From assembly GCA_030426955.1 (NCBI GenBank), contig JAUHXS010000005.1:49790-113789 (forward strand): a DNA stretch of 64,000 bases, written 5' to 3'. This document shows, one piece after another, positions 32,870 to 38,111 of the stretch; within the stretch, counting starts at the first letter, position 1; each line of letters opens with the position of its first letter. Made by a program: the position numbers and the translations under genes. The DNA comes from Bacteroidia bacterium (GTDB lineage: Bacteria > Bacteroidota > Bacteroidia > Chitinophagales > JAUHXS01). The notes under the pieces were generated by a model. The model was given only the letters and a program-made list of their open reading frames with translations, did not search any database and had not been told where the DNA came from.

Positions 32870-35452
32870 ATGTTTAAACACTCATTCCAACTCTTTGCTG
32901 CCACGATCATTCTTGCGAGTTGCTCGAGCTTAAAAAAGTCTCAAAAAAACTACAACGTTAACCTACCAGAGGTAAATGTTTCATCCAACTTCAATGAATA
33001 TAAGGCGGCAAGGAAAATTGTAAATGATCTTTTACATACCAAACTAGAAGTAGATTTTGATTGGAAAAATAAGTACCTAAATGGTAAGGCTGCCTTAACT
33101 TTTAAACCACATTTTCACTCTGTAGATGTACTAGAATTAGATGCACAAGGTTTTGATATAAAAAGTACCAACCTACTAAAGGCAGACTCTACCTTATTGG
33201 AGCTTGATTATAAATACGATGAAAAAATCTTAACACTATCATTAGATAAAACGTATGCAAGAACAGATACATACACAGTTATAATAGAATATACTGCTAA
33301 GCCTGATGAACTAGAAGAAGGTGGCAACTCGGCTATCCGATCAGAAAAAGGATTATACTTCATTAATCCAGATGGAGCGAATAAATATAAGCCAAAACAA
33401 ATATGGACTCAAGGAGAGACTCAGGCATCTTCTTGTTGGTTTCCGACCATTGATGCGCCCAATGAAAAAACAACTCAAGAAATATACATCACTGTAGATG
33501 AAAAATATACCACGCTATCTAATGGTGAGCTAATTTATTCTTCTTTCAATCAAGACGGCACAAGGACTGATTACTGGAAGCAAGACCTTCCTCACGCCCC
33601 ATACCTATTTATGATGGCAATAGGAGAGTATGCAATTATCAAAGATGAATGGAAAGACATACCAGTAGACTATTATGTGGAGAAAGACTATAAAGATGAT
33701 GCCATGAATATATTTGGCGAAACACCTGATATGATCACTTTTTTCTCAGAAAAATTTGGTGTGGAGTATCCATGGGCAAAATATTCACAGATAATTGTTC
33801 GAGATTATGTGTCGGGTGCTATGGAAAATACGAGTGCTGTCATTCATGGAGAGTTTGTTCAAAGAACAACTCGACAGTTGATAGATAGAGATAATCACAG
33901 TATTATTGCACACGAATTGGGACACCATTGGTTCGGAGATTTAATTACTTGTGAGTCTTGGGCAAACTTACCACTTAATGAGTCTTTCGCGACTTATAGC
34001 TCTTACTTATGGGACGAGCATCGTTATGGAAAAGATATTGCCGATGAAGGAATGTTTAGCAATATGAGTAGATATTTTAGAGAGTCTAGATATAAAAAAG
34101 AGCCCATTATTAGGTATTATTATGGCTATCCATTAGATATGTTTGATCGACATAGCTATCAAAAAGGAAGTGCTATTTTACATATGCTAAGAAACTACTT
34201 AGGAGGTGAAGCTTTCTTTGCTTCTATTCAGAACTTCTTAACAAAGAACGCTTTTAAAGCAGTTGAATCAGATCACTTGAGATTAGCATTTGAAGAAACT
34301 ACTGGGGAAGATTTACACTGGTTTTTTGACCAATGGTTTGATCGTGCAGGACACCCAACTTTGGATATTTCTTACAACTATAAGCCAGAGTCTGTAGAAG
34401 TTACGATTAAGCAAACTCAACCAGAAGCTACTTTTCAATTTCCACTTTCGATAGATTTATATTTTACAGATACTATTATCAGGCATAAGGAATGGGTTAC
34501 TGAAAGTGAAGAAAAGTTTGAATATAACATTACAGAAAAGCCTAAACTAGTTAATGTTGATCCTGAGAAAGTTTTGCTATGCGAAAAAGAAGATCATAAA
34601 AGCTCAGAAGCCTTTTTGTACCAATTCTATAATGCTCCTCACTTATTTGATAGAATTGAAGCATTTGACTATGTAGAAGATCTCAAAAACCCTGATGAGG
34701 CAGAGAAAAAGCTACTTTACGATGCGCTCAAAGATCCATCAAGCTTAATCAGGATAAATGCGATTAGTGAAGCTGATTTGAGCTTTCAAGATACTAAAGA
34801 AGCAATGATCAAAATGGTGGATAAAGATGATGCCTCTAATGTGCGAGCTAAAGTCATTTCTTTTCTATCTGATGCTGATAGTTCAGAACAGTTTAGAGCA
34901 ATATTTTTAAAAGCGTTAAGCGATAGTTCCTATTATGTCAATTCAGTTGCTTTAAGGGCAATGTATGAAGTGGACAGCATCTATGCATTAGAAAAAGCTA
35001 AAAAATGGGAAAATAGTATTGATAATAATGTGATTTATGCTATTGCGAGCATCTATTCTCAAGAAGGAAGGACGAACGATACGGCTTTTTATCTTGCTCA
35101 AATTGAAAAAGCAAGAGGAGAAAGAGATATTGCCTCTATGGTGCCTTTTTATATTAATCATCTTGGAAATTCATCTGATGATGTTTTTTACCAACATATT
35201 AAGAAAATTCAGAAAATAGGAACAGATGCTGAAGAAGTTGTACTTGTGAATAGGATCAATAAAAGCTTAAATGATCTGTCAGAGGATTTAAAATCTCAGC
35301 GACCAAGCCTTAAAGCATCCATTAAAAAGCTAAAGAAAGAAGACCCTATAAAAATGCAGGAAACTCAAGCTAAGCTTGATGCATTGGAAGCAAAGATCAA
35401 CTCTATTGAGATTGTGCTAGAGTCACTTAAAGAAGATGAAGCAGAAGATTAG
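32870..35452 (+). CDS. M1 family aminopeptidase lipoprotein with C-terminal HEAT repeats
   Basis: Lipobox LASC; GAMEN; HELGH-x18-E (LNESFA); YQKG; TAGCTTTG -7 box at 32828-32835. Confidence 0.93.
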   Translation: MFKHSFQLFAATIILASCSSLKKSQKNYNVNLPEVNVSSNFNEYKAARKIVNDLLHTKLEVDFDWKNKYLNGKAALTFKPHFHSVDVLELDAQGFDIKSTNLLKADSTLLELDYKYDEKILTLSLDKTYARTDTYTVIIEYTAKPDELEEGGNSAIRSEKGLYFINPDGANKYKPKQIWTQGETQASSCWFPTIDAPNEKTTQEIYITVDEKYTTLSNGELIYSSFNQDGTRTDYWKQDLPHAPYLFMMAIGEYAIIKDEWKDIPVDYYVEKDYKDDAMNIFGETPDMITFFSEKFGVEYPWAKYSQIIVRDYVSGAMENTSAVIHGEFVQRTTRQLIDRDNHSIIAHELGHHWFGDLITCESWANLPLNESFATYSSYLWDEHRYGKDIADEGMFSNMSRYFRESRYKKEPIIRYYYGYPLDMFDRHSYQKGSAILHMLRNYLGGEAFFASIQNFLTKNAFKAVESDHLRLAFEETTGEDLHWFFDQWFDRAGHPTLDISYNYKPESVEVTIKQTQPEATFQFPLSIDLYFTDTIIRHKEWVTESEEKFEYNITEKPKLVNVDPEKVLLCEKEDHKSSEAFLYQFYNAPHLFDRIEAFDYVEDLKNPDEAEKKLLYDALKDPSSLIRINAISEADLSFQDTKEAMIKMVDKDDASNVRAKVISFLSDADSSEQFRAIFLKALSDSSYYVNSVALRAMYEVDSIYALEKAKKWENSIDNNVIYAIASIYSQEGRTNDTAFYLAQIEKARGERDIASMVPFYINHLGNSSDDVFYQHIKKIQKIGTDAEEVVLVNRINKSLNDLSEDLKSQRPSLKASIKKLKKEDPIKMQETQAKLDALEAKINSIEIVLESLKEDEAED

Positions 35453-36078
35453 TTTTTTGCTTCTATTCGTTCAAAATTAAATCCATGTTTACTGAAGTAT
35501 TCTAAGACTTTTGGAAGTAAGTATAACAGCTTTTCTTTAGCTTTCAGACTGTCGTGAAAAACTACTATTGAGCCATCACTGGTATATTTTAGTATCTTTT
35601 CAAAACACTTTTCTTTTGAAATTTCTGAATCAAAATCTCTGCTCAAGACGTCCCACATGACTATTTGATATTCTTCTCTAAGCTTTTTGTATTGGCTATA
35701 TGTTAGTTTTCCGTAAGGAGGACGAAACAATTTACAGTTTAACAGGGTTTCACTCTTTTTTATATTGTAAAGAAACGCCTCATTGTTACTTCTCCAACCG
35801 TTTAAGTGGTCATAGGTATGGTTACCAATGGAATGTCCTTCATCTAATATTCGTTTAAAAACATCAGAGTGTTTTTCTACATTTTTACCTATACAGAAGA
35901 AAGTAGCTTTTGCCTCATGTTGCTTTAAAATATCAAGCACCCAAGGAGTAACTTCAGGCTCAGGACCATCATCAAAAGTCAGAAATATAGTCGGGGTTTT
36001 TGTTCTTATATGCCAAGTTGCCCTTGGAAAAAGCTTTTGAACAAGCGAAGGAGTTGTAAATGTTTTACCTAACCACAA
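35449..36078 (-). CDS. polysaccharide deacetylase (CE4/NodB)
   Basis: LTFDDGP, GNHTYDH, FRPPYG, VFHD; TTG start lies inside the left GxxExxY-flanking repeat. Confidence 0.92.
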   Translation of the reverse strand: MWLGKTFTTPSLVQKLFPRATWHIRTKTPTIFLTFDDGPEPEVTPWVLDILKQHEAKATFFCIGKNVEKHSDVFKRILDEGHSIGNHTYDHLNGWRSNNEAFLYNIKKSETLLNCKLFRPPYGKLTYSQYKKLREEYQIVMWDVLSRDFDSEISKEKCFEKILKYTSDGSIVVFHDSLKAKEKLLYLLPKVLEYFSKHGFNFERIEAKN

Positions 36079-36524
36079 AGTGCACTATGTTTGCGCAAAG
36101 ATCACAAAGAACCGTTAATAACTCTTTTAATCCCTTGCTTTAATAATACCACATTAAAGTTCATCAAAAGTCCAAGCTTATAATCGCCTAACTTTAAATA
36201 GGTCAATGTCTGTGCGAGATGAACATCATTCAATGTCTCAACACTTTTTATTTCAATAACTAGCTTCTTCTCGACTAAAAGATCAACCCGATATCCGCAG
36301 TCTAACTTTACCTCCTCATACATTAGGGGCATTGGCTTCTCTTTTTCAACCTCAAATCCTTCTTTTTTTAATTTAAAGAATAAACATTCTTGATACGCTT
36401 TTTCTAAGAGACCAGGACCAAGTGCCTTATGCACCTCAATGGCATAACCAATTACTATAGTTGCAATCTCATTCTCTGTCATGGCTTTGTGCCCTTTGTG
36501 AATACTTGGGGTTCTTTGTGGTTA
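36070..36524. mobile_element. candidate mobile unit: GxxExxY gene bounded by 40-bp imperfect inverted repeats
   Basis: 36070-36109 vs reverse complement of 36485-36524: 30/40 identical, no gaps, outer 11 bp (TAACCACAAAG) identical. Confidence 0.55.
36102..36482 (-). CDS. GxxExxY protein (PD-(D/E)XK nuclease superfamily)
   Basis: LGPGLLEKAY signature; YRVDLLVE...IEIKS; AQ..TYLK; GLLMNF. Confidence 0.92.
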   Translation of the reverse strand: MTENEIATIVIGYAIEVHKALGPGLLEKAYQECLFFKLKKEGFEVEKEKPMPLMYEEVKLDCGYRVDLLVEKKLVIEIKSVETLNDVHLAQTLTYLKLGDYKLGLLMNFNVVLLKQGIKRVINGSL

Positions 36525-36563
36525 AACAGCAATGATAACAATAATTTTCGTTATTTTTGTGGC

Positions 36564-38111
36564 ATGAGTAACGTTAGAGTAAGGTTTGCACCAAGTCCTA
36601 CAGGACCACTTCACATTGGCGGTGTTAAAACTGCTTTATGCAACTATCTTTTTGCAAAAAAGCATGGCGGTCAATTTCTTCTTAGAATTGAAGACACAGA
36701 TCAAACGAGATATGTCTCTGGAGCAGAAGATTACATTTTAGAAGCTTTACAATGGTGTGGATTAACGCCTGATGAAAGCAGTCAAAATCCTGGTGAATAT
36801 GGCCCCTACAGACAATCTGAAAGAAAAGAGCTTTATAGACAATATGCAGATCAATTAGTGGAATCAGGAAATGCTTATTATGCGTTTGACACGCCAGAAG
36901 AGCTTGAAGAGATGCGCGAAAACATGAAAAAGCAAGGTGTCCCTTCCCCTCAATACAATGCTATAACAAGGCAGTATATGAAAAACTCGCTGGCATTATC
37001 AGCAGATGAGGTTCAAAAAAGACTAGATGCTGGAGAGCCATATGTGATTCGTATCAATGTGCCGAGAAATGAAGAAGTAAAAGTTCATGACACCATTCGT
37101 GGTTGGGTAGTTTTTCAAAGCAGTCAGCTTGATGATAAAGTTATTTTCAAGTCAGATGGTATGCCCACATATCACTTAGCTAATGTTGTTGATGATCACT
37201 TGATGAAGATCAGCCATGTGATTCGAGGAGAGGAATGGCTTCCCTCAACGCCTATTCACGTTTTACTTTATAGGTATTTAGGCTGGGAAGATACGATGCC
37301 AGAATTTGCTCACTTGCCACTTATCTTAAAACCTGACGGTAAAGGGAAGCTGAGTAAGAGAGACGGAGATCGGCTTGGAATTCCCGTTTTTCCGCTAGAC
37401 TGGAAAGATCCAGAAACAGGAAATATTTCATCTGGTTTTAGAGAACGTGGCTTTATTCCTGAAGCTTTCTTAAACATGATGGTATTTTTAGGATGGAATC
37501 CGGGTACAGAACAAGAAATATTCACTTTACCAGAATTAATTGAAGCATTTTCACTAGAAAGAATTGGTAAAGCAGGTGCAAAGTTTGACTATGAGAAAGG
37601 CAAGTGGTATAATCAGCAATATTTAAAAAATCTGGATAGTAAGATCATTGCTGAACAAAACAAGTCTGTGCTTGATGAAAAAGGGATCACTTATGAGGAG
37701 GGATATCTTATAAAAGCTATTGACTTACTAAAAGAGCGAATGACTTTTATTTCCGATTTTTGGGAAGTGGGCAGTTTCTTTTTTCAAAACCCATCGGAAT
37801 ACGATGAAAAGTTAGTTAGAAAAAAGTGGAAAGATAATATTCCAACTTTGTTTGATGATTTACAAACAAGCTTATCCAGTTTAGATAATTTCACTCATGA
37901 AGCTATTGAAACTGAGATAAAAGGTTTTATGGAGAGGCATAATTTAAAGTTTGGAGATGTTCTACCTGTTTTTAGATTAATGATTAGTGGTGTTGGTGCT
38001 GGACCACCATTGTTTGAAGTCGCAGAACTTTTAGGAAAAGAACACGTTATCTCAAGAATGGGAGCTTCAAAAGAAATCTTTAATACAATTTGTGCAAAAG
38101 AAAATGCCTAA
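36564..38111 (+). CDS. gltX: glutamate--tRNA ligase
   Basis: RFAPSPTG.LHIGG, LRIEDTD, IRGEEW, KLSKR; start moved to ATG 36564, 4 nt after TATTTTTG (36552-36559); the longer ORF overlaps the GxxExxY gene. Confidence 0.97.
   Translation: MSNVRVRFAPSPTGPLHIGGVKTALCNYLFAKKHGGQFLLRIEDTDQTRYVSGAEDYILEALQWCGLTPDESSQNPGEYGPYRQSERKELYRQYADQLVESGNAYYAFDTPEELEEMRENMKKQGVPSPQYNAITRQYMKNSLALSADEVQKRLDAGEPYVIRINVPRNEEVKVHDTIRGWVVFQSSQLDDKVIFKSDGMPTYHLANVVDDHLMKISHVIRGEEWLPSTPIHVLLYRYLGWEDTMPEFAHLPLILKPDGKGKLSKRDGDRLGIPVFPLDWKDPETGNISSGFRERGFIPEAFLNMMVFLGWNPGTEQEIFTLPELIEAFSLERIGKAGAKFDYEKGKWYNQQYLKNLDSKIIAEQNKSVLDEKGITYEEGYLIKAIDLLKERMTFISDFWEVGSFFFQNPSEYDEKLVRKKWKDNIPTLFDDLQTSLSSLDNFTHEAIETEIKGFMERHNLKFGDVLPVFRLMISGVGAGPPLFEVAELLGKEHVISRMGASKEIFNTICAKENA

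Follow-up and report, generated by a model that had tools for sequence, protein, structure and literature searches.

The subject of this study is a 455-bp unit in the genome of a Bacteroidia bacterium, in which a small nuclease gene of the GxxExxY family stands between two inverted arrays of the heptamer CACAAAG and its variants; we call it the cassette, and we call the whole 64,000-nt stretch of contig JAUHXS010000005.1 that was analysed the window. Several described systems join a small gene to a repeat. In the repetitive extragenic palindromic (REP) system, the repeat is a palindrome of 20-40 nt with a GTAG or CGTC head, and the enzyme, RAYT, is an HUH/Y1 transposase. The intervening sequences of 23S rRNA that carry S23p / four-helix-bundle open reading frames (ORFs) place a small ORF within inverted repeats, as a compact insertion in a transcribed region. 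Insertion sequences (IS) and miniature transposable elements with inverted repeats (MITEs) have defined inverted ends, show presence/absence polymorphism and give rise to short gene-less derivatives. In its subterminal word arrays, the cassette is closer to eukaryotic hAT/CACTA elements than to the ends of bacterial IS.

REP and REPIN sequences accompanied by a RAYT gene, known as REPtrons, are the subject of three papers (PMC5581495, PMC3733652, PMC3479197). A second pairing is that of the Ssn GIY-YIG nucleases with the NTS/SRM repeats (Chenal et al. 2025, PMC11893778). According to the available text of that paper, cleavage of single-stranded DNA (ssDNA) and an effect on transformation are shown experimentally, 42% of the ssnA homologues are flanked on both sides by the cognate repeat, the repeat is dispersed in hundreds of copies, and 81% of the repeat-rich genomes encode Ssn. 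Intergenic direct repeats of the heptamer TAACTGA are reported from Beggiatoaceae, cyanobacteria and some Bacteroidetes (PMC4679880, available text). The GxxExxY / PDDEXK_3 proteins themselves form a large family, which the available part of a survey of PD-(D/E)XK enzymes lists with function 'Unknown' and 'multiple transfers' (PMC3424549). A further paper that names GxxExxY does so only to label a domain.

Our analysis suggests, with confidence about evenly balanced, that the window's unit represents a widespread selfish repeat-plus-nuclease cassette, here in a solitary copy, similar to REP/RAYT or to Ssn/NTS. This cassette type consists of a gene for a PD-(D/E)XK (GxxExxY) protein of ~125 aa between two inverted arrays, each of four helically phased heptamers, that end in TAACC. 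By comparison with the systems above, it appears to be neither REP/RAYT nor Ssn, nor an rRNA intervening sequence or an IS/MITE, and to work most like the first two. We found no published description of heptamer-armed GxxExxY cassettes in the literature covered, which excludes subscription journals; among the matches listed, a search with the heptamer strings returned unrelated papers only.

The likeness to REP/RAYT lies in a lone enzyme gene standing between inverted copies of its own repeat, in gene-less doublet hairpins that are dispersed or tandem (in other genomes), and in a gene that is usually single-copy, vertically persistent and under purifying selection. The differences are that the cassette's enzyme is a PD-(D/E)XK protein (its Pfam and NCBIfam matches are only PDDEXK_3 and GxxExxY, with no HUH/Y1, IS200-like match), that its repeat is made of four phased 7-nt words ending in TAACC, and that the window's genome has no dispersed gene-less copies, as against 203 hits in another genome (G204). 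The original prediction, made from the window's sequence, had drawn the REP-RAYT analogy for this locus. Gene-less units and their co-occurrence with the gene uphold it elsewhere, whereas the window's own element is solitary and has no solo arrays beside it.

The likeness to Ssn/NTS, so far as the available text of PMC11893778 describes that system, is that a small nuclease gene lies between cognate repeats, that the repeat is dispersed, and that repeat-rich genomes mostly encode the enzyme (here, 26 of 28 genomes with at least five heptamer arrays). By the same text, the two differ in their enzymes (GIY-YIG there, PD-(D/E)XK here) and in their repeats (hairpins there, word arrays here), and ssDNA cleavage and a transformation effect have been shown for Ssn only. 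The cassette is also a compact unit with a small ORF enclosed by inverted repeats, like a 23S intervening sequence, but it lies between protein genes, encodes a different ORF family and carries no signal of a selected stem. With IS/MITEs it shares inverted ends, presence/absence polymorphism and gene-less derivatives; unlike them, it has no DDE, serine, tyrosine or HUH transposase. No target-site duplication was found at a junction too diverged from G001 to show one, or around 17 gene-less units of G204. The TAACTGA repeats resemble it, in the available text of PMC4679880, in having heptamers beside start codons and a patchy cross-phylum distribution. They differ in being contiguous, tandem and of one orientation, with only one inverted set reported, and in that this text mentions no linked nuclease gene (the word 'nuclease' occurs 0 times).

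The cassette, its insertion site and its protein

The locus comprises the following features, with positions counted from the first letter of the window.

36070..36524, minus strand: whole cassette (arm, GxxExxY gene, arm), 455 bp, delimited by comparison with a genome of the same genus (G001) and by DNA homology to other Bacteroidota cassettes
36070-36109, minus strand: gene-downstream (left) arm, from sequence reading and an inverted-repeat search; plus-strand parts TAAC 36070-73, CACAAAG 36074-80, CACTATG 36083-89, CGCAAAG 36094-100, CACAAAG 36103-09
36485-36524, minus strand: gene-upstream (right) arm, from sequence reading and an inverted-repeat search; plus-strand parts CTTTGTG 36485-91, CTTTGTG 36494-500, CTTGGGG 36505-11, CTTTGTG 36514-20, GTTA 36521-24
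36102..36482, minus strand: GxxExxY / PDDEXK_3 gene, 126 aa, from profile matches, invariant residues and a structural model
35449..36078, minus strand: polysaccharide deacetylase gene (PF01522, 3.4e-30), co-directional with the cassette gene and downstream of the cassette, its start inside the cassette
36525..36563, no strand: residual deacetylase-gltX spacer, aligned with the G001 spacer from ~36529
36564..38111, plus strand: gltX, glutamyl-tRNA synthetase (PF00749, 1.2e-95; PF19269, 9.9e-32), divergent from the cassette

Each arm is 40 nt long and consists of four phased CACAAAG-type heptamers. The left arm reads TAAC-CACAAAG-TG-CACTATG-TTTG-CGCAAAG-AT-CACAAAG, and the reverse complement of the right arm reads TAAC-CACAAAG-AA-CCCCAAG-TATT-CACAAAG-GG-CACAAAG. 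The inverted-repeat search matches 30 of their 40 positions (75% complementary) across an interval of 375 nt. The heptamers of the right arm are spaced 9, 11 and 9 nt from start to start, and the second of them, counted from the outside, is CCCCAAG (gene sense), which is unlike the commonest words of the family. The gene's ATG (36480-36482) lies 2 nt away from the right arm, and its TGA (36102-36104) falls inside the innermost heptamer of the left arm. All of this reads as the original prediction had given it: the two arm sequences, their 30/40 identity and their four heptamers each, a unit of 455 bp made of repeats and gene alone, and a position between a deacetylase gene and a divergent gltX.

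An inverted repeat may surround an ordinary small gene by chance, and here the AT-richness of the genome and the imperfect match of the arms (30/40) speak for that possibility. Yet among 956 ATG-started ORFs of 90-200 aa, the cassette has the strongest ungapped inverted repeat flanking start and stop; its score of 30/40 compares with a median of 19, and no other ORF reaches 28. CACAAAG is not enriched genome-wide (446 observed versus ~407 expected), and the cassette locus, with five exact copies, is the sole site of the 3.4-Mb assembly where at least three CACAAAG lie within 500 bp. A motif of two heptamers spaced 9 nt apart has just two occurrences in the genome, one per arm, and the cluster and two-word motif scans found no further heptamer array anywhere in the window's genome. 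The arms are well beyond chance. The ORF ranking, the lone cluster and the recurrence of the same arms around homologues in other orders (see below) refute a chance origin, whose probability we put close to nil.

The same junction is empty in G001, where 51 bp separate the deacetylase ATG from the gltX ATG. When the two genomes are aligned, homology picks up at 36069 on the deacetylase side and at ~36529 on the gltX side, where the spacer match begins at AGCAATGATAAC and extends to the gltX ATG; to within a few bases, therefore, what the window's genome has in addition is the unit bounded by the repeats. We compared the gltX loci of the best 29 of 59 order relatives with a match. A GxxExxY gene is present at this locus in none of the 29, and in 16 of them a deacetylase gene adjoins gltX and is divergent from it. 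From these alignments, the 455-bp unit was inserted as one piece into the deacetylase-gltX spacer of this lineage, directly at the start of the deacetylase gene. The original prediction had called the unit a candidate minimal mobile element, and two of the three observations that it named as speaking against this concern sequence: other GxxExxY genes without such arms, and relatives without empty sites. Arms were found across the family and empty sites were found in relatives, and the sequence comparisons thus support the candidate.

A free-standing homing endonuclease gene would reach such a place differently, by cutting the empty junction and having repair copy the cassette in. This explanation fits a small nuclease gene wedged between conserved genes, as well as a Flavobacterium junction where at least 15 of 100 species have the site filled; some homing enzymes use the PD-(D/E)XK fold, and one of them, I-Bth0305I, is a weak structural neighbour of the cassette protein. 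However, homing needs a target in the empty allele rather than repeats inside the element, and the empty G001 spacer is free of any CACAAAG-type word. The multiplication of gene-less hairpin units would be unexpected, and the occupied junctions differ between genomes. We consider homing very improbable.

At the window's junction, the insertion of the whole unit also altered a host gene. The ATG of the G001 deacetylase corresponds to GGT in the window's genome, and the only in-frame start of the deacetylase ORF (ATG, GTG or TTG) is the TTG at 36076-36078, within the terminal heptamer. The deacetylase has therefore lost its own start and most of the spacer, and judging from the sequence its translation must now begin at the TTG inside the cassette. 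Because the deacetylase gene follows the cassette gene after 23 nt and in the same direction, co-transcription is likely, and the deacetylase is probably transcribed through the cassette. At three other loci (L097, L099 and L101), a long same-strand downstream ORF is likewise open to the TTG of a terminal heptamer (distance -5), a putative start.

In public reads, the locus was matched only in contigs of two metagenome runs, both possibly the source of this DNA and both with the filled site, and no RNA data set was listed; such contigs are blind to rare excised or empty forms. At 35727-35882, a contig of depth ~4.7, found in both runs, matches two short deacetylase pieces 169 letters apart and is probably another organism's deacetylase homologue. 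In the genome of another order relative (G026), the same junction (L016:2198-2834) carries a nucleotidyltransferase/HepT-like pair upstream of the deacetylase gene (PF18765, 3.6e-17; PF01934, 5.4e-25), so the spacer accepts other small selfish modules too. An Rfam match to Hrs13 at 35774-35853 on the plus strand, opposite the deacetylase gene, scored 24.8 bits against a gathering threshold of 52 and was taken as chance.

The cassette protein belongs to the GxxExxY / PDDEXK_3 family, scoring above the curated cut-offs of both profiles (PF13366, PDDEXK_3: 5.7e-41, 140 bits, cut-off 22; TIGR04256, GxxExxY: 7.2e-42, 142.4 bits, cut-off 35), and it is the only member in the window's genome. The motif that names the family reads G24-L-L-E27-K-A-Y30. 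Eleven residues are invariant in 70 aligned homologues (G22, G24, E27, Y30, D67, E77, K79, Y95, N108, F109 and R120), including all the E...D...ExK catalytic residues of the PD-(D/E)XK superfamily (E27, D67, E77, K79). An AlphaFold2 model of the 126-aa protein (pLDDT 96.6) contains a restriction-endonuclease-like alpha/beta core. Its top structural neighbours are all PD-(D/E)XK nucleases with Z of 5-8 (BpuSI, Z 7.9; Cas4 SSO0001, Z 7.8; Hjc, Z 6.2), none of them close and no subfamily standing out. A homodimer prediction scored 0.00 against a mark of 0.42, a result that carries weight neither way. The protein has no match in the PDB by sequence at E up to 1, none for its model in Foldseek at E up to 0.001, and none among the known defence families of PADLOC. 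Its matches in PHROGs are weak (3.2e-4 and 6.9e-3), and viral contigs yielded one relative only for the alignment query, with no sign of phages carrying this clade.

Arms and gene-less units in other genomes

A search for homologous loci returned 80, with proteins 64-82% identical to the cassette protein (one 58%), from many Bacteroidota orders and a few other phyla. We counted arms at the 78 loci with full flanks, window copy included, requiring at least three words of the relaxed form CNCNNAG within 50 nt; the counts depend on this heptamer definition, and relatives are non-independent samples. Arms stood on both sides at 29 loci, on one side at 28 and on neither at 21. Random 380-nt intervals from the same loci had them on both sides in 0 of 1345 cases and on one side in 16 of 1345. 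The proposal that other GxxExxY genes would be flanked by inverted heptamer arrays is borne out by this excess.

The layout that recurs at the homologues is TAACC[A/G]CAAAG and three more words, then the ATG, with an inverted array after the stop, and the arms abut start and stop codons. The prevailing distances between words are 9 nt (91 cases) and 10 nt (54 cases), with a middle gap of 10-16 nt, and TAAC precedes the outermost word in 39 arms, compared with 7 for the runner-up 4-mer. BLASTN aligns positions 1-453 of the 455-bp unit to cassettes of other orders, L042, L041 and L036 among them, at 71-75% identity. In a seven-way alignment extended by 30-nt flanks, similarity begins at TAACC and ends at GGT(T/A)A, and the flanks are unrelated. 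The arm-gene-arm layout is a property of the gene family and is widespread in Bacteroidota.

G001 has three GxxExxY genes that are 40-43% identical to the cassette protein (L003, L004 and L005), flanked by hairpin units of another word, CATGATT / AATCAAG, with ends GTCTTGAACC...GGTTCAGAC; by BLASTN, none of the three loci is present in the window's genome. That copies of this identity have a different word agrees with a word type that goes with the clade of the protein. The distance from an arm to the next start codon is at most 55 nt at 21 of 29 loci, a figure that we do not use as evidence, as it comes without a control for ordinary operon spacing.

Arms also occur without the gene. At two loci (L050 and L065), the gene lies amid tandem runs of 5-8 units of ~100 bp, each unit consisting of an arm, a short loop and an inverted arm. 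We scanned 200 genomes of the order with a strict two-word end pattern, which was found in 76 of them with up to 86 hits per genome; the same pattern reversed, as a control, was hit 0-2 times on each strand of a genome. Drift in its second words leaves the window's genome with 0 hits to the strict pattern. A close homologue of the cassette protein (E up to 1e-30) is encoded by 51 of the 76 genomes with arrays, versus 29 of the 124 without. Among the 28 genomes with at least five arrays, a close homologue is encoded by 23; a family model, applied to the remaining five, found another family member in three, a remnant in one and none in one.

The most array-rich case noted here is G204 (the genome of L103), where many of the 203 hits are convergent pairs 95-200 bp apart, and all 17 units fetched from it are gene-less and of the form arm-loop-arm. 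Solo CACAAAG arrays, which the original prediction had proposed to count, are thus missing from the window's own genome and present elsewhere as tandem or dispersed hairpin units. Many of the G204 units (L163-L179) have an extra, loosely conserved outer module (~GTGGCTATTT) beyond the TAACC end on both sides, so that unit borders differ between lineages. In G095 (L122-L151), the 86 array hits are mostly single arms, and behind each comes a member of a small set of other conserved repeat modules, among them one ~130 nt long. Five array-rich loci have no match in Rfam. A replication-strand bias was considered, on the strength of same-strand runs per contig in G095 (30 forward, 56 reverse) and of a GC skew that is positive in 23 of 30 loci when oriented by the arm; it was dropped, as strands are mixed along the single-contig genome G023 and several of those 30 loci overlap one another.

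DNA words or an RNA stem

Inverted arms could act in the transcript rather than in DNA. The arms would then pair to form an RNase III site or a stabilising stem, after the model of the 23S rRNA intervening sequences or of an mRNA-closing 5'/3' helix, and the DNA repeats would be a by-product. The minimum-energy fold of the cassette RNA does pair the terminal arms. However, this fold is no more stable than those of shuffled sequences (z = -0.66; 24 of 100 shuffles fold as well), and a stem has no need of four identical phased words per arm. Co-direction with the upstream ORF (60 of 67 loci versus a 77% baseline, p = 0.013) and the abutment of arms on start and stop codons are points in favour of a device in the transcript; co-direction with the downstream ORF (57 of 70 loci) is not different from the baseline. 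None of the 80 homologue loci matches its own genome's 23S rRNA locus, and the cassette arms have no Rfam match (only the sub-threshold Hrs13 in the deacetylase gene).

The pattern of substitutions bears on the same question. Spacers are 57% identical between the two arms of one element and 56% between unrelated elements, and thus show no excess of complementarity. Mismatches between arms include 41 compatible with a sense stem, 44 compatible with an antisense stem and 147 transversions, with no wobble bias. Heptamers of equal rank, which would pair in a stem, agree at 6.17 of 7 positions, compared with 6.19 for non-partners across the arms and 6.11 for words of the same arm, so that partners show no effect of pairing. 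Heptamer positions agree at 88% within an element versus 81% between unrelated elements, and the word type (CAC or CGC) is the same in both arms of 40 of 45 elements, independently of GC (rho 0.15-0.18). Concerted evolution of the heptamer word within an element is observed, although the agreement in word type is also what pairing would produce. We regard the RNA-level explanation as quite improbable.

Since neither the spacers nor the would-be pairing partners show signs of selection for a stem, the arms resemble sets of words for a protein to bind more than they do an RNA helix. Eight alike words, about one DNA turn apart, would fit recognition by one factor better than formation of a specific helix. 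The obvious candidate for the factor that reads these words is the enclosed protein.

Mechanism, persistence and decay

If the cassette is a selfish repeat-plus-nuclease element, its nuclease would recognise the heptamer word, each word taking up a single protomer and all protomers sitting on the same face of the DNA. The enzyme would then synapse (or fold) the two arms and cut at or near the TAACC ends, and host repair or recombination would complete the move. The joining is assigned to host functions because PD-(D/E)XK enzymes hydrolyse DNA. In genomes that have gene-less arm-loop-arm units, the enzyme would also work on these in trans, like RAYTs on REPINs and Ssn on NTS. Binding, cleavage and mobility by the cassette's own enzyme are what we infer. 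A further proposal is that these cassettes form a new class of prokaryotic mobile element, whose sole protein is a PD-(D/E)XK nuclease of ~125 aa, whose ends are word arrays, whose joining is left to host repair, and which moves both itself and gene-less hairpins; we put this forward tentatively and hold it doubtful.

The history of the gene is best seen at a junction in a Flavobacterium (L107), where the gene is found at the corresponding position in at least 15 of 100 congeners. In others, the junction is a short gap, or is occupied by several gene-less units (G231) or by a unit of other words (G260); in G295 (L153), the stretch reads N. The G260 unit (L160) is short and made of CGCAGAT / ATCCGCG-type words. 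Seven cassette genes from this junction have a dN/dS of ~0.08, with a dS of 0.86-2.7 that is partly saturated, and the protein is under purifying selection. In the genomes of order relatives, 119 matches are spread over 81 genomes, usually one or two per genome, and 19 of the 119 contain in-frame stops. Intact copies of the gene are thus long-lived and constrained, but the gene also undergoes loss, breakage and replacement.

Several observations weigh against a selfish, self-moving cassette. To our knowledge, PD-(D/E)XK enzymes hydrolyse DNA with no rejoining known, and the nuclease alone therefore does not explain integration. No target-site duplication was found at the window's junction, where the window's genome and G001 are too diverged, and a TA at both cassette ends is indistinguishable from the inverted repeat itself; around the 17 gene-less G204 units, too, none is evident. 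The window's genome has one gene and no other array. The 21 armless loci have fewer than three heptamers within 140 nt on either side, and at some of them arrays lie at a greater distance, or belong to abutting units and run the opposite way. Arrays persist without an intact gene (a remnant in G058, none in G112), and the protein is present in 29 of the 124 genomes that lack strict arrays. Finally, strong purifying selection and persistence at one locus (dS of at least 0.86) fit a domesticated gene equally well.

Such a domesticated nuclease would serve its host by binding its own heptamer arrays, for genome maintenance or regulation, much as late RAYTs are pictured, and it would spread passively through recombination or transformation. 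The low dN/dS, the Flavobacterium junction filled in at least 15 of 100 species, the one or two copies per genome (119 matches in 81 genomes), the host-like composition of the cassette (GC 0.363, window 0.362) and its single copy without dispersed arrays in the window's genome are all as this explanation would have them. It is opposed by junctions that differ between genomes and by exact unit boundaries, by gene-less units that reach ~100 per genome, by in-frame stops in 19 of 119 matches, a decay like that of selfish elements, and by the lack of a match to any known defence family. We judge domestication unlikely, and retain the selfish repeat-plus-nuclease cassette as the preferred reading.

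If the cassettes do form a new class of mobile element, theirs would be the third enzyme, arrived at independently, to sustain a repeat-plus-enzyme lifestyle, the HUH RAYTs and the GIY-YIG Ssn being the first two, and they could be a source of small nucleases whose sequence specificity is predictable from their own flanks. Should the proteins read their own flanking words, each gene would name its own DNA target, making the family testable at the bench, a class of dispersed Bacteroidota repeats would gain an explanation, and compact sequence-specific nucleases might come into use as tools. The window offers a clean test case, with a single copy, no other array, an empty site in a congener and a consequence for the host at the deacetylase start.

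The state of the window's copy can be read from its composition and its arms. Its GC content equals that of the window, and its arrival is therefore not recent. With no other targets in the genome, two of the eight heptamers drifted and a host-like composition, the copy is probably old and quiescent.

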